Sequence record: NC_073059.1 | Reading direction: 5' to 3' (one strand) | DNA length: 45,243 nucleotides | Source of the DNA: Escherichia phage vB_EcoS-CHD5UKE2 | Part shown: piece after piece, positions 2,257 to 45,243 of the stretch | How positions within the stretch are numbered: position 1 is the first letter of the stretch | Layout: every line of letters starts with the position of its first letter | Notes under the pieces: model-generated | Databases searched by the model: none | What the model saw: only the letters and a program-made list of their open reading frames with translations | Told to the model about the DNA's origin: nothing | Position numbers and translations under genes: made by a program

Positions 2257-2849
2257 TATTTCACCTTAGAATTGATTTCTGCCGCTACGACGCGAACAAT
2301 CCCCGCGGGCGCTTGTTTACTCCAGCCATACTCCAGTCGCTGCGCGTACGGCACGTTGTTAGTAAACCAGATAGACCCATATTCGCCAGAATCGTAATGC
2401 GCCAGCACGTCACGCCCCGCGGCTAATGTTGCCGTTCCAGCCTTGTCCACCCGGTCAACCGCGCCAACAGCCGGACGGTCGAAAGACACCTGCCAGTTTC
2501 CCCGGAAGCGTCCGCCGGTGTAGTTCTTCGCGGCCCAGCCACGCTGGCGGAACGTGACGTTGCCGTTTTTAGTCTTGAACGATACGAGGACACTGGCGTG
2601 CTTTTTCTGCCCGCGCTTCAGTTTGCCACCATTCTTACGGCGCTGTGCGGCGTTCACCTTGCTCGCGTGCTGGCGGGCCATCGCGTACGCCTTGTTTATC
2701 TTCCACCGGCGGGGGTCGCCCACCGGGGAGATCTCAATCAGGCGTCCGAGTATTTGCATACCGGTCGCCCGCACCGCCTTGTCGTTGTTCTCCTTCGTCT
2801 TATCTACCCATGTTGCAATGGTAGCGGCGAACGAGTAGACCTCAGCCAC
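2256..2849 (-). CDS. Head-tail connector / neck protein (putative)
   Basis: 197 aa; GTG start at 2849 with RBS AAGGGG; stop overlaps next start. Confidence 0.4.
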   Translation of the reverse strand: MAEVYSFAATIATWVDKTKENNDKAVRATGMQILGRLIEISPVGDPRRWKINKAYAMARQHASKVNAAQRRKNGGKLKRGQKKHASVLVSFKTKNGNVTFRQRGWAAKNYTGGRFRGNWQVSFDRPAVGAVDRVDKAGTATLAAGRDVLAHYDSGEYGSIWFTNNVPYAQRLEYGWSKQAPAGIVRVVAAEINSKVK

Positions 2850-2850
2850 G

Positions 2851-3204
2851 TTAGCCCCTTAGCTGTAATTGAAACAGCATGGTAGTGCCAGCCGGTTGCA
2901 GTGGGGTGGGATTGATAACACGGTAATCTGTGTTATTCAGGTTAACCAGATCGCCTACCTGCACTTGCTCCGCCGCCTGACATAAGAACTTAACATCACC
3001 GGCAATGACCCGAGTCCCGTCGATCTCACGAGGCTTGTACTCCTCTCGAAGCCCGATGATATCAAACGACGTTGGCGGGATTACTATCTCGTTGCCGTCT
3101 ACGCGGTCAACCGATCCAGGACGCGTCACGGTAACTGTCATGCCGAATTTTTTAATCAGCGGATTTACTTTCCGCTTTAAGCCTGCGTAGTCAAATCCCG
3201 CCAT
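2851..3204 (-). CDS. Head-tail connector protein (putative)
   Basis: ORF-track start 3288 gives an Arg-rich N-terminus; in-frame ATG at 3204 (MAGFDYAGL...) is more plausible. Confidence 0.4.
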   Translation of the reverse strand: MAGFDYAGLKRKVNPLIKKFGMTVTVTRPGSVDRVDGNEIVIPPTSFDIIGLREEYKPREIDGTRVIAGDVKFLCQAAEQVQVGDLVNLNNTDYRVINPTPLQPAGTTMLFQLQLRG

Positions 3205-5857: not shown

Positions 5858-5887
5858 TTGCAATCCTGGTATTGGTTGCACTATATT
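5858..5887 (+). promoter_or_regulatory. Sigma70-like promoter for the plus-strand island
   Basis: -35 TTGCAA (5858..5863), 18-bp spacer containing ATTGGTTGCA, -10 TATATT (5882..5887); second TTGGTTGCA at 5886..5894. Confidence 0.5.
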
Positions 5888-5922
5888 GGTTGCACACCAA
5901 CAGAGATATGAAGGAAAACAAA

Positions 5923-6237
5923 ATGAATAACATGACCGTAGCAACTCCAGTAGATGCAGCAATGACCCGTTTCAATAAAGCTGCCGTTGCCAATACCTTT
6001 ACCTTTCACGCGATGCGTAACGCTGAAGCGCTGAATCTGTGCCAGAGCATGAACGCTACTGAAGCTGCGAAAGCTGCGATCAATTCCGCAACCTTCGATA
6101 ATCCGGCTTGTGGTCTGGTTCCGGCATCTTTCATCAACGCCCTGGTCGAAGCCTTTAACGATTTCATGTGCGTTGATGCCGTTGAAGCAGTATGCGCTCG
6201 CTTAACCTCCATCGGTGGCAACATCAAGTTTAACTAA
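5923..6237 (+). CDS. Hypothetical protein (first gene of the plus-strand island)
   Basis: ATG 5923 with RBS AAGGAAAAC; 104 aa; no recognised motif. Confidence 0.5.
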   Translation: MNNMTVATPVDAAMTRFNKAAVANTFTFHAMRNAEALNLCQSMNATEAAKAAINSATFDNPACGLVPASFINALVEAFNDFMCVDAVEAVCARLTSIGGNIKFN

Positions 6238-6276
6238 ACCAAATGGGGCGAAAGCCCCAACAATGAGGAAACACAA

Positions 6277-7041
6277 ATGAGACTGACAAAAGACATTAAA
6301 AACCAGATTCTGGCTAACATCCTGCGCGGCCACGAAATCGCGACTGAAGCCAAATCAATCATGATGGACTCTCGCGACCTGGCGTACGCAATTACGCTGG
6401 ACTGTATGCCAAAAGGCATTCACACGTTCGCCGAGCTACGCGCATATATCGCAGAAATCCGCGATAACCAGTCGCAGATGTACGGCGTCAGCGTTTACAC
6501 CGACAAGGCGACGTATAGCTATAACAAAGACCGTCAGAAAGGCATTGGACGCGTTTACTGCTCCACTTTCGAAATCAACGCAGGCGGTAACATCCGTACC
6601 CTGCATATGAGCGGCGACGGATACCGCTACCGCCAGCACCGCGGATACTGGGAAGAAAAATATATGAATACGCTCGCGCCTGACGTTAGCGATATTGTAC
6701 CGGGGTACGAGGAAATTATGCTCGCGTCAGTATGTGAAGTGGATGAGGACGGAAAAGCGCTGCCGATATATCTACCACGCGGTCGCGTAGACTACCCGGC
6801 AGAGCATGATTTCTGCAAGCGCCTGGACCACAACGACAAGGCCCGCCGTGAATTGCGTGCGAAGTATGACGCGTTCAAACTAACCGTTACCGGCGTGCTG
6901 GATATGCACAATACTGACAAGAAGCTGATCGCGGCGTGGCCTGAAGTTGAACAATTCATTCCATACCCGGACAAGCCGAAGTCAACGGCAGTAGCGCTGG
7001 ATGTGAAGACGTTAAACGAAATCTGCGGTATTCCGCGCTAA
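6277..7041 (+). CDS. Hypothetical protein (island gene 2)
   Basis: 254 aa ORF with RBS GAGGAAACA; no recognised motif. Confidence 0.55.
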   Translation: MRLTKDIKNQILANILRGHEIATEAKSIMMDSRDLAYAITLDCMPKGIHTFAELRAYIAEIRDNQSQMYGVSVYTDKATYSYNKDRQKGIGRVYCSTFEINAGGNIRTLHMSGDGYRYRQHRGYWEEKYMNTLAPDVSDIVPGYEEIMLASVCEVDEDGKALPIYLPRGRVDYPAEHDFCKRLDHNDKARRELRAKYDAFKLTVTGVLDMHNTDKKLIAAWPEVEQFIPYPDKPKSTAVALDVKTLNEICGIPR

Positions 7042-7098
7042 CAAAAGGGGGCTGTAATGGCCCCGAATTATCGTCTACATAACCACGAGGAAATTAAA

Positions 7099-7614
7099 AT
7101 GATTAAAGTTAACTACGCCGATCTTAAAGCCGCTACGATATGCGCCGCAACTAATGACGTCCGATACTTCCTAAATGGTGTATTTTTCGACGAGAAAGGA
7201 TACATCGTGGCTACAGACGGTCACCGTTTGTTCTGCGGGTCTGCGGTTGTACCAGAAGGTGAAAGTAAAATAGTATCAATTAAAGGCCGCTTACCTACTA
7301 AATTCGAATACTGCAACATAGACGGCACCTCCGCCGCGTTCTTCGATAGTAAAGACGTATTAATAGCTACCATACCCATCGAGATTGTAGACGGGCTATT
7401 ATTTCCAGACTGGAGAAGAGTTACGTCTTTCATCAGCAATAAAGTGGAGGCTATCGGGTTTAACGGGGCATACCTATCCGACGCCTGCAAAATTGCTAAA
7501 TTGTTCGACCGTAAGTTTGAGGGATTAAAACTGGAATTTCAGGGAGTAGACAAGGCAACACGCGTGCTGTTCAAAGGAGGTGCCTTTTTAGTTATCATGC
7601 CGATGCGTTTGTAG
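7099..7614 (+). CDS. Truncated DNA polymerase III beta sliding-clamp (DnaN) homologue, about 171 aa
   Basis: Recalled DnaN signatures: DVRYFLNGVFF, ATDGHRL, FPDWRRV, AIGFNGAYLSD and C-terminal VIMPMRL (E. coli beta ends VVMPMRL); ATG 7099 with RBS GAGG; ORF-track start at 7057 lies in a hairpin. Confidence 0.6.
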   Translation: MIKVNYADLKAATICAATNDVRYFLNGVFFDEKGYIVATDGHRLFCGSAVVPEGESKIVSIKGRLPTKFEYCNIDGTSAAFFDSKDVLIATIPIEIVDGLLFPDWRRVTSFISNKVEAIGFNGAYLSDACKIAKLFDRKFEGLKLEFQGVDKATRVLFKGGAFLVIMPMRL

Positions 7615-12621: not shown

Positions 12622-12738
12622 GATATAAGCCCTTTTATGCATATGCGCCGACCATCGGCAGCATAGGAGACGGCCCAGCCATCTAAGGGGGATTATAACA
12701 GGCACAAAAAAGCCCACCAAATCGGCGGGCTGGGAGGA

Positions 12739-14090: not shown

Positions 14091-14300
14091 ATTTAATTAA
14101 TTCCTGATTAGTGGACCGTGGACAATATACCACGGTCCGTATGGCGGCGGGCTATATCAATTCGCAAATAACCATGCCGATAAAAGCCGCGGTGGTCCAG
14201 ATCGCTAATACCCAAATATCTTTACGTGCCATCTTGATTACTCCTCCAGTTGATTGGTTGCAGTATGGCCCCTGTGTTGGTTGCGAGTCAAGCAATAAAA

Positions 14301-16845: not shown

Positions 16846-17111
16846 TTGCTCAGTCTCCAGTGTTTGCCTACCCGCTCAACGGCGGGCTTCCGGCGTAATG
16901 TAATACGGATTCCCATTGGTTGCAAGGAAGTCCGCACATAGAAATCATGTTGTGCTGCGAACTGGTGCAAGTAGCGAGTCTGCGTAAGTGGCTTCACGTC
17001 GTCGCGATAGCACCAGTACACGGAATCGCCCTCAATCGCATTCTTAGCCCATATTCGTACGCAATGCAGGGGAATATGCCAAGAAAGCTGTTTAGCTCGC
17101 CTACGGCTCAT
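16842..17111 (-). CDS. Hypothetical protein
   Basis: 89 aa ORF in the coupled chain. Confidence 0.45.
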   Translation of the reverse strand: MSRRRAKQLSWHIPLHCVRIWAKNAIEGDSVYWCYRDDVKPLTQTRYLHQFAAQHDFYVRTSLQPMGIRITLRRKPAVERVGKHWRLSK

Positions 17112-17447: not shown

Positions 17448-17640
17448 TGTTCAATCCTCTTGTTGGTGTGCAACCAATCTAGCAGGGTGCCAGGCTGAAT
17501 GCAACCAATATTAATCACGCGTATGAAAAAGCTGATCGCTATCTGCTGCAACTGCAAACTGCATTTTTCACTTCACATAACACAACTCGCATTGGTTGCC
17601 TAGTTCATCAACAACCGCGATTCACATCATGCTGCCGTAC

Positions 17641-17850
17641 ATTATGCAATCCCGGATTTTATGCAGTCTCAGACGAGGGGGGCCAACTGACCCCCGTCTA
17701 GTCTGAAAGACTGGGGTTTGTCCCGCCTGTCCCGCTCCCTCGCAAGCCGCGTAATCCGGGGCGGGACAGGGGTGCTGTCCCGCTTTGTCCCGCCCCCTGT
17801 CTGTCCCGCTTTTTGTCCCGCTTACTTTATGCAATAAAACTGCATAACTA
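17641..17850. repeat. Iteron-bearing structured element, copy B, between primase-helicase gene and the start of the late operon
   Basis: Same conserved blocks and hairpins as copy A, divergent central spacer; followed by AT-rich tttatgcaataaaactgcataactattcactatatttacac. Confidence 0.8.
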
Positions 17851-17927
17851 TTCACTATATTTACACTACACGGCAACCAATGCGACCAGCTAAAAACACT
17901 CAATTTGGCAACCAATGCGCGCAAAAT

Positions 17928-20199: not shown

Positions 20200-20649
20200 T
20201 CATTTAGCCCACTGGCGAATAGTAGAACGGTTGATTCCGGTCATCTCAGCTATCTGATTCCATGATAGCCCTTCCTCGCGTAGCCGCTTAACGACCGGTG
20301 CATACTTCTCTCGGGCGAGGGTCATCTCGCGTGCCGCTTCTTCTGATTTGCGCACTGCCTCGATAGCGCCGCCTTTCAACAGGTCAAGCTCGGCTTGCAT
20401 ATTGTCTCGCTCGTCCGCAAGGCCGTTATACGACTGCATGTAAAAGGATAACTTGTCCATAAGGGCCGTGATTATGTCAGATGCCGTGGTCTTATCCATC
20501 GCCAGAATATCGGCAGCTTGCTCGGCGTGCGGGATCGGGTCTGCGCAAAAATCGCCGAAGGTGATAGTCTTTCCGTCGTCCCAGGAAAGGGCGATTTGGT
20601 GAGTCCATTTCGTATGGTTCCAGCGATTTAAGGTTTCGTTAGTGCTCAT
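20200..20649 (-). CDS. HTH transcriptional regulator (putative)
   Basis: 149 aa; C-terminal HTH-like LSWNQIAEMTGINRSTIRQWAK; first gene from a strong divergent promoter. Confidence 0.5.
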   Translation of the reverse strand: MSTNETLNRWNHTKWTHQIALSWDDGKTITFGDFCADPIPHAEQAADILAMDKTTASDIITALMDKLSFYMQSYNGLADERDNMQAELDLLKGGAIEAVRKSEEAAREMTLAREKYAPVVKRLREEGLSWNQIAEMTGINRSTIRQWAK

Positions 20650-20682
20650 TGTCTTGTCCCGTGTGTTAGTGGTGTAGGCCGC

Positions 20683-20711
20683 ATACTATGCCTAAAAATA
20701 AACGGTGTCAA
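20683..20711 (-). promoter_or_regulatory. Sigma70-like promoter for the regulator/primase operon
   Basis: Minus-strand reading TTGACA-N17-TAGTAT (near-consensus). Confidence 0.6.
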
Positions 20712-20827
20712 CTCCTTTTGTATATTGAACCGGGCGCGCACGCGTGTAATAATAATTCCCGTCTCATTGTCTCTTATTGGTTAGCGCCGTCGCATTTTGC
20801 CTCGGCGCTTTTTTTTGAAATTAGTTG

Positions 20828-20857
20828 TTGACACCCCGCCTGCAACCAATCTATTAT
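20828..20857 (+). promoter_or_regulatory. Sigma70-like early promoter for the plus-strand replication block
   Basis: -35 TTGACA (20828..20833), 18-bp spacer containing TGCAACCAAT, -10 TATTAT (20852..20857). Confidence 0.6.
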
Positions 20858-20917
20858 TCACCTCGTTGACGGGGCATACCGCACCGAACACTTAAATTAA
20901 CCAATCGGAGATATACC

Positions 20918-21433
20918 ATGTTTGAGCAAATCGTAAACCTGATCACACGCGGCGTTGTAGCACTGGAAACCATCGCTAAGCATTATGAAACTGCGGGCGC
21001 TGCCGTTGATAAACAGGAAGCGAAGAAAGCCCCGGCGAAGGGCAAGGCGAAAGAAGTAGTCGAAGATGACGATGCTGAAGACGAAGCACCGGCAAAGACC
21101 AAAAAAGCGCCCGCAAAGGGCAAGGCTAAGAAAGAAGCCGTAGAAGAAGACGACGACGCGGACGAGGAAGAAGCCCCGGCGAAATCTAAGAAAGCACCGG
21201 CGAAAGGTAAAGGCAAGAAAGATGCCGATCTGCTGAAAGAAATGCGCGACGAAATCAAGCAGTATGCCGCTATTATTGCGGGCGGTGATGACGACGACGC
21301 AAACGACGAATTTGATGATCTGCTGGAAGCGTTCGAAATTAAATCCGTTGCCAAGCTGGAAGATGACGACGTCGAAGACTTCCACAAAGATTTAAAAGAA
21401 ATCGTAGAAACGTATTTCGAATTAGAAGATTAA
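20918..21433 (+). CDS. Early protein with alternating Lys-rich (KKAPAKGKAKK) and acidic repeats
   Basis: RBS GGAG 7 nt before ATG; three APAKxKKAPAKGKxKK units separated by Asp/Glu runs; intrinsic terminator immediately downstream. Confidence 0.6.
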   Translation: MFEQIVNLITRGVVALETIAKHYETAGAAVDKQEAKKAPAKGKAKEVVEDDDAEDEAPAKTKKAPAKGKAKKEAVEEDDDADEEEAPAKSKKAPAKGKGKKDADLLKEMRDEIKQYAAIIAGGDDDDANDEFDDLLEAFEIKSVAKLEDDDVEDFHKDLKEIVETYFELED

Positions 21434-23321: not shown

Positions 23322-23556
23322 GGTGTTTGCATTCGTATTGATGATTATGCTCGGTGCGCTGGGCTTTATCCTGCATTGCGTGCAGGGCGTGTTAATGGTG
23401 GCCTGGATGATTCGCCATCCATCCCGCTGGCTGGACGATGGCTACAGTGACGTTGCCGTAGACTGGGTGTTAAAGCATAAAGACCGCCCGCCGTTAAGCT
23501 GGATCGAGAACGCCTCCGACTACGTGATCCGAAATCTTTTTAATAAAAGTGCTTGA
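23314..23556 (+). CDS. Small membrane protein
   Basis: 80 aa with two hydrophobic helices; start overlaps the exonuclease stop. Confidence 0.45.
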   Translation: MNKVFAFVLMIMLGALGFILHCVQGVLMVAWMIRHPSRWLDDGYSDVAVDWVLKHKDRPPLSWIENASDYVIRNLFNKSA

Positions 23557-23581
23557 CCGCTTAGGCGCAACCAAGTAAATT
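23553..23581 (+). promoter_or_regulatory. Sigma70-like promoter upstream of the SSB gene
   Basis: TTGACC-N17-TAAATT with two direct GCAACCAAG boxes (23567..23575, 23583..23591). Confidence 0.45.
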
Positions 23582-23645
23582 AGCAACCAAGCCGAACGGG
23601 GTGGCTCACAATAACCCCGATACATGCGAAATGAGGAAATGAAAA

Positions 23646-27090: not shown

Positions 27091-27365
27091 CACCCGAAGG
27101 CAAGATACAAAGTCACCTGATGCGACGGGTGAAAGAGGTCGGCGGATTCTGCCGTAAACTGGCATGGGAGGGGCGCGCAGGTGCGCCCGACCTGATTATT
27201 ATCATCAACGGCATCATAGTATTCGTCGAAGTGAAGCGCCCCGGCGGAAAACCGAAGCCGCACCAGGTGCGAGAACATGAGCGAATGGCCCGCCGCGGTG
27301 CTGACGTTCGCGTTATTGACAACATAGCCGACTGCGATTTATTGGTTGCTGAATTGGTCGCGTAG
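27087..27365 (+). CDS. VRR-NUC domain nuclease
   Basis: 92 aa; PDLIIIINGIIVFVEVKRPGGKPKPHQ matches the PD-(D/E)xK VRR-NUC pattern; ATGA coupling to the upstream gene. Confidence 0.6.
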   Translation: MTPEGKIQSHLMRRVKEVGGFCRKLAWEGRAGAPDLIIIINGIIVFVEVKRPGGKPKPHQVREHERMARRGADVRVIDNIADCDLLVAELVA

Positions 27366-27405
27366 CGGTATAGTGTGCCGGTTAGCCCTATCGAGGATTT
27401 TAGAA

Positions 27406-30281: not shown

Positions 30282-30318
30282 ATTGGTTGCGTAATTAGAT
30301 TGGTTGCATTATCTTAAG

Positions 30319-30350
30319 GGTGTCCGGTTGGACGCCCTTTTTAATACCTG
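30319..30350 (+). terminator. Terminator-like hairpin in the leader of the following gene
   Basis: gggtgtcc-ggtt-ggacgccc followed by TTTTTAAT, sitting between TTGGTTGCG/TTGGTTGCA boxes and the RBS. Confidence 0.4.
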
Positions 30351-31503: not shown

Positions 31504-31970
31504 AACTACTGATTTGTGATCTGGATGGCGTTATTAATGGTTCAAGTGATGCGCGTGCTGACCTGGTGCCCGGCATAAAAACCAAATCAACATTTTGGGC
31601 GAAGTGGCACAAAGCACACGTACGCGAAGACCTTAACATGGATATGTTGCCGCTGCTGCGCATGTACAAAGGGCAAGGCTTCGAGATAGCGTATCTGACT
31701 AACCGGCAGCGCGAATGCTGGGATACGACCGCCAAGCAATTGGAAGTATTCCCGACGGGCCGGTTGTTCATGCGCCACATGCTGGACGACACCCCACCGC
31801 CAGAATTTAAAGCATGCGCGGTGGTCAAAATGGTTTGCTATGCGGACGTGTCCGAACTGGTCATCATTGAAGACTGCGCTAAGAATATTGACGCCATCCG
31901 TCGGGCGTGCAGCGATATGGTCCCTAAAATTTATTCTATAAACGTAGCAAAATTTACTTGCAACCAATAG
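31500..31970 (+). CDS. HAD-superfamily phosphatase (possible nucleotidase)
   Basis: N-terminal LICDLDGVI (HAD motif I DxDG); 156 aa. Confidence 0.5.
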   Translation: MKLLICDLDGVINGSSDARADLVPGIKTKSTFWAKWHKAHVREDLNMDMLPLLRMYKGQGFEIAYLTNRQRECWDTTAKQLEVFPTGRLFMRHMLDDTPPPEFKACAVVKMVCYADVSELVIIEDCAKNIDAIRRACSDMVPKIYSINVAKFTCNQ

Positions 31971-31987
31971 GTTGGTTGCACTATAGT
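31958..31987 (+). promoter_or_regulatory. Sigma70-like promoter with perfect inverted repeat TGCAACCAA-N5-TTGGTTGCA
   Basis: -35 TTGCAA (31958..31963), 18-bp spacer, -10 TATAGT (31982..31987); the palindrome spans both. Confidence 0.55.
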
Positions 31988-34860: not shown

Positions 34861-34941
34861 AGCTGAATCCTCTTAAAATTGGTTGCATTCTTGATTGAGC
34901 GGTGCAATACTAAAACTCAACCAAATATAGGAGATGATAAC

Positions 34942-45019: not shown

Positions 45020-45243
45020 TATGCAGTCCCCTTTTTTTTTATGCAGTTGCCGATTGACATTGTATCAGCGAATTTCAAACAAACCTTATTCAGTCTCAGA
45101 CGAGGGGGGCCATTAACCCCCGTCTAGTCTGAAAGACTGGGAGTTGTCCCGCCTGTCCCGATCGGCTGAAACCCGCGGCAGCACTGACGGGGACGGGGTG
45201 CTGTCCCGCTTTGTCCCGCCCCTTGTTTGTCCCGCTTTCTGTC
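45020..45243. repeat. Iteron-bearing structured element, copy A, 5' part (continues at 1..300 across the wrap); lies between tail chaperone and tape measure genes
   Basis: Blocks shared with copy B at 17664..17822: cagtctcagacgaggggggcca, acccccgtctagtctgaaagactggg, ttgtcccgcctgtcccg, ggggtgctgtcccgctttgtcccgcccc, tgtcccgcttt; TTATGCAG boxes at about 45047 and 45057. Confidence 0.8.

Follow-up and report, generated by a model that had tools for sequence, protein, structure and literature searches.

The divergent early control region at 20650-20917 separates two sets of genes in the window, by which we mean the whole stretch of 45,243 nucleotides that was analyzed. To the left, genes for a 149-aa HTH protein and for the helicase-primase are followed by 480 bp of non-coding DNA ("region B"), small genes, genes for lysis and for an SbcD-like exonuclease, and those for terminase and head proteins; to the right lie orf171 and genes for an exonuclease, SSB, DNA polymerase, a helicase, and methylases, together with accessory genes. 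The rightward early promoter, TTGACA-18-TATTAT at 20828..20857 (+ strand), is predicted to drive orf171 and the exonuclease operon, is conserved in HK578, Bas85, LM40P1, and SO-1, and contains in its spacer, at 20842-20850 (about -22..-15), one copy of the 9-mer GCAACCAAT, with which we are mainly concerned here. The leftward early promoter P_L, TTGACA-17-TAGTAT at 20683..20711 (- strand), is strong, is predicted to drive the HTH and helicase-primase genes, and has no site of this kind in the window or in three other genomes.

A small unit at 20725-20818 (+ strand) lies between the divergent early promoters. It begins with a promoter-like TTGAAC-17-AATAAT with TG (20725-20753), also without the motif, and about 30 nt further a strong terminator hairpin (GCGCCG...CGGCGC, then T8) would end a transcript of about 60 nt. 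The unit is nearly invariant against HK578, holds the near-motif ATTGGTTAGC, and may be a small RNA; it has no match in Rfam, which gave no match to known RNA families in the window, and the Bas85 record annotates two tiny opposite-strand ORFs here. The first rightward early gene (20918-21433, + strand) encodes a 171-aa protein in which KAPAKGKAK-type lysine-rich repeats alternate with acidic tracts. This protein is PHROG 3127, of unknown function in PHROG, and the public annotations disagree on its coding strand, the Bas85 record having an overlapping ORF on the opposite strand.

The window has 89-95% identity to phages rolling, vB_EcoS-101114BS4, and RuthEpting_Bas85 (Bas85) by megablast and tblastn, and all proteins of Bas85 map onto it with conserved order. 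It is a complete genome of a Dhillonvirus, i.e., an HK578-like virulent coliphage, in an orientation that is the reverse complement of HK578. Since its ends (1-127 and 45117-45243) are identical over 127 nt, it represents a single complete circularised genome of ~45.1 kb (about 45,116 bp), in which the end repeat would be the overlap of a circularly closed assembly (or a terminal redundancy). No integrase was found in the annotations of relatives or by Pfam and PHROG scans. A 26-kb Dhillonvirus fragment with no host flanks is present in an E. coli assembly (GCA_039647835.1, contig ABSFEX010000037.1), suggesting that phage was carried over into this culture or persists there in a carrier state.

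The motif, tGCAACCAAT, is asymmetric and 9-10 bases long. Exact copies of GCAACCAAT number 15 in the whole window against 0.58 expected, the count stayed below 15 in all of 100 dinucleotide shuffles, and with one mismatch there are 26 copies against 12.8 expected; in a de novo k-mer screen ATTGGTTGC was the most over-represented 9-mer of the window (37-fold). When the gene map of Bas85 was transferred to the window, 6.2% of it (about 2.6-2.8 kb) was assigned to non-coding DNA, and 16 of all 20 occurrences of the 8-mer GCAACCAA fall in this portion, against 0.08 expected from composition and a maximum of 3 in 2000 shuffles. The sequence-only reading, which had described the motif as almost purely intergenic and had proposed a genome-wide comparison of intergenic with coding frequency, is thus borne out: GCAACCAA is 66 times as dense in non-coding DNA as in coding DNA. 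All positions that it listed do hold copies, but several are one-mismatch variants, namely GCAACCAAG at 23567 and 23583 and GCAACCAAC at 14276 and 31971, and it missed exact copies at 16915 (within a CDS, in a promoter-like context) and 27341 and the variant GCGACCAAT at 27353. The logo, to which six genomes contributed 112 distinct contexts, reads t-GCAACCAA-T, and its flanks are without information.

In regions whose flanking genes share a strand, six sites are sense and nine antisense with respect to transcription. Since both orientations are used, the signal is read on DNA and not on RNA, and an RNA-level element was rejected. A methylase or restriction target was also rejected, because the motif is restricted to intergenic DNA, and so was a packaging signal, because the copies are dispersed. 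In the searchable literature, GCAACCAAT and ATTGGTTGC gave primer-type matches only and no phage paper, and the motif is not mentioned in what is searchable on Dhillonvirus or HK578 promoters. Another 8-mer, ACGGCAGC/GCTGCCGT, is present in 28 copies against 3.2 expected (e.g., 1697, 5312, 10363, 18591, and 39440), which are scattered in coding DNA in all three frames, 21 on one strand and 7 on the other. An outgroup Salmonella phage has 17 copies of it against 3.4, and it may be a host-like oligonucleotide bias or a dispersed strand-specific signal.

Promoters have been predicted by a consensus scan and a PWM scan, which agree on the site-bearing promoters, and the transcription start was taken as 7 nt after the -10. 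Inside ten predicted sigma-70-type promoters lie 17 of the 21 sites, and seven of the ten have two sites. These ten have TTGACA-like and TATAAT-like hexamers 16-18 bp apart and a gene start 20-80 nt downstream, and some of them match the consensus at 9-11 of 12 positions. Among promoter-like sites of the PWM scan that are intergenic or motif-bearing, nine of the best 11 hold the motif in their core. The tie to sigma-70-like early/middle promoters, which had been proposed from the sequence, is supported, and the equivalent architecture is repeated in three other genomes, LM40P1, HK578, and SO-1.

Besides the promoter at 20828, the following promoters of the + strand carry sites. TTGACC-17-TAAATT at 23553..23591, upstream of the genes for the SSB/annealing protein and DNA polymerase, holds two sense copies of GCAACCAAG, at 23567-23575 (about -21..-14) and 23583-23591 (about -5..+2). 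Two antisense sites, both conserved, are found in TTGCTG-17-TATAGT at 27341..27374 (-35 from 27346), within the 3' end of the VRR-NUC gene and upstream of the Lar-like gene; the copy at 27341-27349 gives the TTGC of the -35, and that at 27353-27361 (GCGACCAAT) lies in the spacer. Preceding the ligase-like and Dam genes, TTGCGT-17-TATCTT at 30282..30315 (-35 from 30287) has two antisense sites 17 bp apart, over the -35 (30282-30290) and at -22..-15 (30299-30307), and the equivalent module of LM40P1 is TTGCAT-17-TATATT. The predicted start of this promoter (about 30322) is inside the left arm of a terminator-like hairpin (30318-30337, then T5), at which read-through from upstream would terminate and of which transcripts from the promoter itself could not form the full stem; in this region (30310-30345) LM40P1 keeps a hairpin of different sequence, and promoter and terminator also overlap at 12692-12731 (- strand). 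TTGCAA-18-TATAGT at 31958..31987, upstream of the DUF6378 gene, holds the inverted pair TGCAACCAA-N4-TTGGTTGCA, with 31960-31968 over the -35 and 31971-31979 at -22..-15. This is the pair previously called a perfect palindrome (31959-31980) with a spacer of five; the inverted repeat exists, but the spacer is N4.

TTGCAT-17-AATACT at 34878..34911 (+ strand, -35 from 34883), the promoter of Cor-like/membrane moron genes in the divergent region beside the tail-fibre gene, has one antisense site over its -35 (34878-34886) and two sites in LM40P1. TTGCAA-18-TATATT at 5858..5893 (+ strand) has two antisense sites, 5871-5879 (-22..-15) and 5885-5893 (-8..-1). This two-site promoter is predicted to drive a three-gene cassette (5908-7614, + strand), which lies between blocks of head genes on the opposite strand and encodes hyp8, a "nucleotide modification associated" protein (Nmad5), and a third product weakly matching the DNA polymerase III beta-clamp domain. 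Other genes fill the same slot in HK578 and SO-1, and the cassette may be a DNA-modification or anti-defence moron.

On the - strand, TTGACT-18-CATACT at 14253..14291, upstream of a small ORF and the SbcD-like exonuclease gene, has two sense sites, 14276-14284 (GCAACCAAC, -29..-22) and 14253-14261 (-6..+1). Just 5' of the SbcD-like gene, a conserved hairpin CCGTGGTATATTGTCCACGG (14105-14135, - strand) is retained even by LM40P1, which has lost the small ORF next to it and the second copy of the motif. TTGCAT-17-TAGATT at 17470..17509 (- strand, -35 at 17504), upstream of hyp59, has two antisense sites, over the -35 (17501-17509) and at -8..-1 (17470-17478). The promoter-like TTGCAA-17-TACATT at 16897..16925 (- strand), within the hyp60 CDS and upstream of hyp61, has one sense site over the -35 (16915-16923), and the motif and TACATT are kept in LM40P1 despite diverged coding flanks. 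Two site-bearing units are small genes downstream of the helicase-primase gene. The motif had been described as embedded in nearly every predicted early promoter, and the label "early" is roughly right, but P_L and the promoters at 12720-12692 (upstream of the terminase gene) and 5850-5823 (upstream of the scaffold and capsid genes) are strong and site-free. The putative regulon marked in this way is the non-structural genome minus the operon of the HTH protein and helicase-primase.

The position commonest among the sites is -22..-15, in either orientation and including 20842, so that the earlier description of the motif as abutting the -10 is right for this class; sites lie also over the -35 and over -10/+1. 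At -39..-32 the sites are antisense and the TTGC of ATTGGTTGC starts the -35 hexamer, at -34..-27 they are sense (TTGCAACCAAT), -29..-22 (sense) and -27..-20 (antisense) have one site each, and the classes nearest to the start are -8..-1 (antisense) and -6..+2 (sense). These placements bear on positive control, in which a phage factor, possibly the sigma-region-4-like or LuxR-like HTH protein, would recruit or re-target host RNA polymerase. The sites would then define a class of delayed-early/middle promoters, much as MotA boxes do in T4 and CII sites in lambda. Four promoters take from the motif the TTGC of a weak -35 (TTGCAT, TTGCGT, and TTGCTG), which matches the consensus only at TTG, and LM40P1 has three near-identical two-site modules, ATTGGTTGCA-N8-ATTGGTTGCA followed by TATATT. 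The HTH protein of the leftward operon has weak Pfam and PHROG matches to sigma-70 region 4, and its own promoter is site-free, as expected of an immediate-early activator. However, the sites face either way and range in position from -39 to +2, a protein at -8..-1 or -6..+2 should block the open complex, and the near-consensus promoters 20828 and 23553 should need no activation. Moreover, T4 middle promoters have a single MotA box at about -30 in fixed orientation, which replaces the -35, whereas here TTG of the -35 is present, and no MotA/AsiA-like domain was found among ~35 proteins searched against Pfam, 20 of them also against PHROGs; a MotA/AsiA-type system was rejected on these grounds together. 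We consider positive control unlikely, and the promoter-specificity element, which the sequence-only reading had offered as its second option, has lost ground with the mixture of six sense and nine antisense sites.

In most pairs the two sites are repeated directly and start 12, 14, 16, 17, 23, 31, or 35 bp apart, and the pairs as a whole range over 11-35 bp in either relative orientation. A good inverted repeat is present only at 31960/31971, in one of about ten promoters, and a palindromic operator of a symmetric HTH dimer was therefore rejected. The proposal of an operator for a dimeric phage regulator has to be modified accordingly, since a classical dimer on a palindrome does not suit an asymmetric 9-10-mer with flat flanks. 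Because two-site promoters vary in spacing and orientation, a dimer with flexibly linked heads, or monomers, would fit better than a rigid symmetric dimer.

Five sites lie in region B, directly downstream of the helicase-primase gene. Two of them form the hyp59 promoter, and the extended variant GGCAACCAATGCG occurs at 17587-17600, 17872-17885, and 17907-17919, in both orientations, as inverted repeats around a cluster of the iteron GCGGGACA; these three copies flank origin-like iterons and not an obvious promoter. GCGGGACA itself has 19 copies against 1.6 expected, of which 17 are confined to two non-coding regions, region B (17716-17830) and region A (1-300 and 45117-45243). Both regions share TTATGCA(A/G)T boxes, DnaA-box-like in look, and a 25-nt palindromic block, and their equivalents carry the names "region A/B" in the SO-1 record. 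These regions probably represent two origins of replication or, as in P4, a pair of the ori/crr kind.

This arrangement raises a role in replication or genome architecture, in which the HTH protein would be an origin-accessory protein and the sites would load replication proteins at transcription bubbles or insulate the origin, effects on transcription being secondary. The five sites of region B and the GGCAACCAATGCG inverted repeats speak for such a role, and the HTH gene ends 10 nt before the helicase-primase start, a position that would also suit an origin-binding or loader protein. Region A, however, has the same GCGGGACA and TTATGCA repeats and no GCAACCAAT, the 17 promoter-core sites are spread over 30 kb, and two of the five region-B sites make a promoter, so that we regard this role as very unlikely. 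The motif as a replication-origin iteron was rejected, because it is spread over about 30 kb and absent from region A, and GCGGGACA fills the role.

Exact copies of the motif number 13-17 each in HK578, welsh, Bas85, LM40P1, and Sodalis phage SO-1, in equivalent intergenic places; LM40P1 is the most divergent of these five genomes (helicase-primase 79% identical). When 19 sites of the window were aligned to the orthologous positions in the five genomes, the eight core columns were 98-100% identical, whereas columns within ±45 nt of the sites averaged about 87% (range 75-97%). Since the core columns are conserved well above their flanks, the 8-mer itself is evidently selected, and the motif is under purifying selection. 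Non-consensus variants are also kept in place across genomes, i.e., GCGACCAAT at 27353, GCAACCAAC at 14276 and 31971, and the AAG variant GCAACCAAG at 23567/23583, the last in all five genomes, which suggests tuned affinities.

The same comparison bears on a common origin of the copies without any dedicated factor, either as promoter cassettes spread by duplication or recombination, like the PeSL cassettes in phages of the T4 type, or as microhomology by which modules are exchanged. The genes behind site-bearing promoters are often those that vary most (identity to Bas85 is 54-81% for hyp59, hyp62, the ligase-like gene, and hyp31 and 95-100% for most genes), and a stem-loop follows several of these promoters. 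On the other hand, several conserved genes also follow site-bearing promoters, and the core is conserved well above its flanks. Because only 8-10 bp are common among the copies, while flanks, -35/-10 hexamers, position, and orientation vary, the copies do not descend from one cassette, and this origin is extremely improbable.

Salmonella phage SaI_NFG_5577, with a helicase-primase 44% identical, is the closest outgroup that shares the layout. It has one copy of the motif, which is chance level, and a screen of this genome for another dispersed intergenic motif found none. A scan of IMG/VR for motif pairs gave at least 120 loci; among the matches listed, seven are Dhillonvirus fragments, and most others are coding Ala-Thr-Asn (GCA-ACC-AAT) tandem repeats or chance occurrences. 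In the genomes compared and among the IMG/VR matches listed, the motif is confined to Dhillonvirus. An unrelated 19-kb viral contig (IMG/VR 3300038463_000167) has eight GGATGCAACCAATTAGGCGGGG-like units within 360 bp (2795-3158), an iteron-like cluster with a 9-mer core identical to the phage motif, and tblastn, which covered part of the contig, found no relative of the Dhillonvirus HTH protein in it.

A DNA-binding protein of the host (Enterobacteriaceae) might be exploited by the phage in place of a phage regulator. GntR regulators of the FadR subfamily, PdhR and UxuR among them, have a half-site to which ACCAAT/ATTGGT bears a superficial resemblance, and the motif is invariant although the candidate phage HTH protein has two diverged forms. 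The sites are, however, single asymmetric 9-mers and not the TGGT-N3-ACCA-type palindromes that these host dimers need, and the related Salmonella outgroup phage with its similar layout is without the motif. The searchable literature has no match of the motif as a bacterial operator; searches mostly return primer sequences. A host factor seems very doubtful to us.

Among the ~35 non-structural proteins scanned against Pfam, 20 of which were also scanned against PHROGs, the only recognisable DNA-binding domain is that of the 149-aa HTH protein (20200..20649, - strand), the first gene product of the leftward early operon, in which Pfam HTH_23 covers residues 119-148. Weaker matches were obtained with resolvase-type HTH families in addition to sigma-70 region 4. 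Two forms of this protein exist in the genus, one of 142-156 aa (here and in HK578) and one of 109 aa (most relatives), for which the records variously give transposase, resolvase, or "nuclease inhibitor gamma". The forms have in common 66 C-terminal residues only, the N-terminal half being swapped, and the C-terminal HTH is conserved across the genus as RLRxEGxSWxxIAExTGINxSTxRxW. The recognition helix differs slightly between the forms (INRSTIRQW versus INQSTVRSW) whereas the motif is identical, which counts against a link between the two.

An AlphaFold2 model of the HTH protein has a long helix at residues 75-125 followed by a C-terminal three-helix HTH; its overall confidence is moderate, and its global fold score is low. 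Foldseek matched the HTH part only, to generic Hin, IstA, LuxR/DosR, and ParB-type domains with E above 1, and a PDB sequence search found nothing significant. No member of the family outside Dhillonvirus was found in a phage collection, a 5.8-billion-protein index, or IMG/VR, and in SaI_NFG_5577 the regulator gene that lies 130 bp upstream of the helicase-primase gene is of the Cro/CI type and unrelated. All this is compatible with the HTH protein as the reader of the motif, and on circumstantial grounds we regard it as the prime candidate binder. The binder could instead be one of the many other genus-specific proteins of unknown function.

Several known systems can be compared with the present one. 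The C1 repressor of the temperate phage P1 has many monovalent and bivalent asymmetric operators of 17 bp (ATTGCTCTAATAAATTT), which are scattered over the genome and overlap sigma-70 promoters of unrelated operons. The candidate HTH protein has no detectable similarity to C1. Lambda Cro and Mu Ner are small early HTH proteins that turn down early promoters in lytic growth by occlusion, and as symmetric dimers they occupy palindromic operators located in one or two control regions, unlike the asymmetric sites in about ten promoters found here.

The T1-like phages T1, TLS, and Stevie have a 21-22-nt intergenic repeat with the consensus aaATAGCACnnnTTGnTAAAA, whose function is listed as open by the authors (PMC11447400, PMC4319613). 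These phages are also virulent enterobacterial siphophages using host RNA polymerase, and their repeat is likewise asymmetric, present in 16-21 copies, and located almost only between genes. It is, however, co-oriented with transcription and placed further upstream, whereas the present motif is of 9-10 nt, in both orientations, usually paired, and inside the -35/-10 core. A search of the window for the T1-type repeat ATAGCACnnnTTGnTAAAA gave two matches at up to 3 mismatches against 1.0 expected, both coding, and this repeat as the identity of the motif was rejected because the sequences are unrelated.

Stoperators of mycobacteriophage L5 and other Cluster A phages are asymmetric 13-bp sites for the monomeric HTH repressor gp71, with ~30 dispersed intergenic copies, one of which lies in an early promoter, according to PMC9283540 and Brown et al. 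(1997), as cited in PMC4319613. They are alike in being short, asymmetric, and dispersed in many intergenic copies. They differ in that they have one orientation relative to transcription and act on elongation, whereas the present motif is free in orientation and lies in promoter cores. Another difference is that L5 is temperate and its repressor gives immunity, whereas Dhillonviruses, which have no integrase, count as virulent. A gp71-like repressor, with an HTH and a stoperator domain, was not found in the annotations of relatives or by Pfam and PHROG scans, and the HTH candidate has no sequence or domain relation to gp71, its Pfam matches being generic C-terminal HTH families only.

The motif is enriched, restricted to intergenic DNA, placed in promoter cores, conserved in the genus, and independent of orientation, and tGCAACCAAT is most likely the binding site of one phage regulator, which would control about ten early/middle promoters together. 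We infer protein binding, a repressive effect, and the HTH protein as the binder, and the full combination, i.e., a dispersed asymmetric operator through which the HTH protein represses early/middle and moron promoters, seems to us about evenly balanced between right and wrong. The regulator would be made from the strong and site-free P_L and would occupy sites in the cores of about ten sigma-70 promoters of DNA-metabolism and accessory (early/middle and moron) units. Since the sites cover the -35, the -10-proximal spacer, or -10/+1, even in near-consensus promoters, occupancy would most likely exclude RNA polymerase, and paired sites may be read by two flexibly linked DNA-reading heads or by independent monomers. 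The marked promoters would then be turned down together, which would be a Cro-like early shut-off in a virulent phage. Two points count against this operator reading: a strictly lytic phage has no established reason to repress most of its non-structural promoters, and three sites flank the iteron cluster, where there is no obvious promoter.

Dhillonviruses, including HK578, SECphi18, and several BASEL phages, are standard phages in work on anti-phage defence, and one conserved operator in about ten promoters would give them a testable regulon and a candidate master regulator. It would also be a handle for engineering, since changing the 9-mer (e.g., GCAACCAAT to GCAAGGAAT) or transplanting it should re-time genes. 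The motif is a second, better-positioned case for the question that was raised for T1-like phages on dispersed intergenic repeats in strictly lytic phages. A further-reaching idea, which we judge distinctly unlikely, is that the motif and the HTH protein form an unrecognised genome-wide switch of virulent siphophages, in which a coiled-coil dimer with two free sigma-region-4-like heads would clamp site pairs in promoter cores. All early/middle and moron promoters would be shut off or re-programmed simultaneously, while the promoter of the HTH gene and those of the structural genes would stay free. If true, such a switch would be the first mechanistic handle on the unexplained dispersed intergenic repeats of T1-like and related lytic coliphages.
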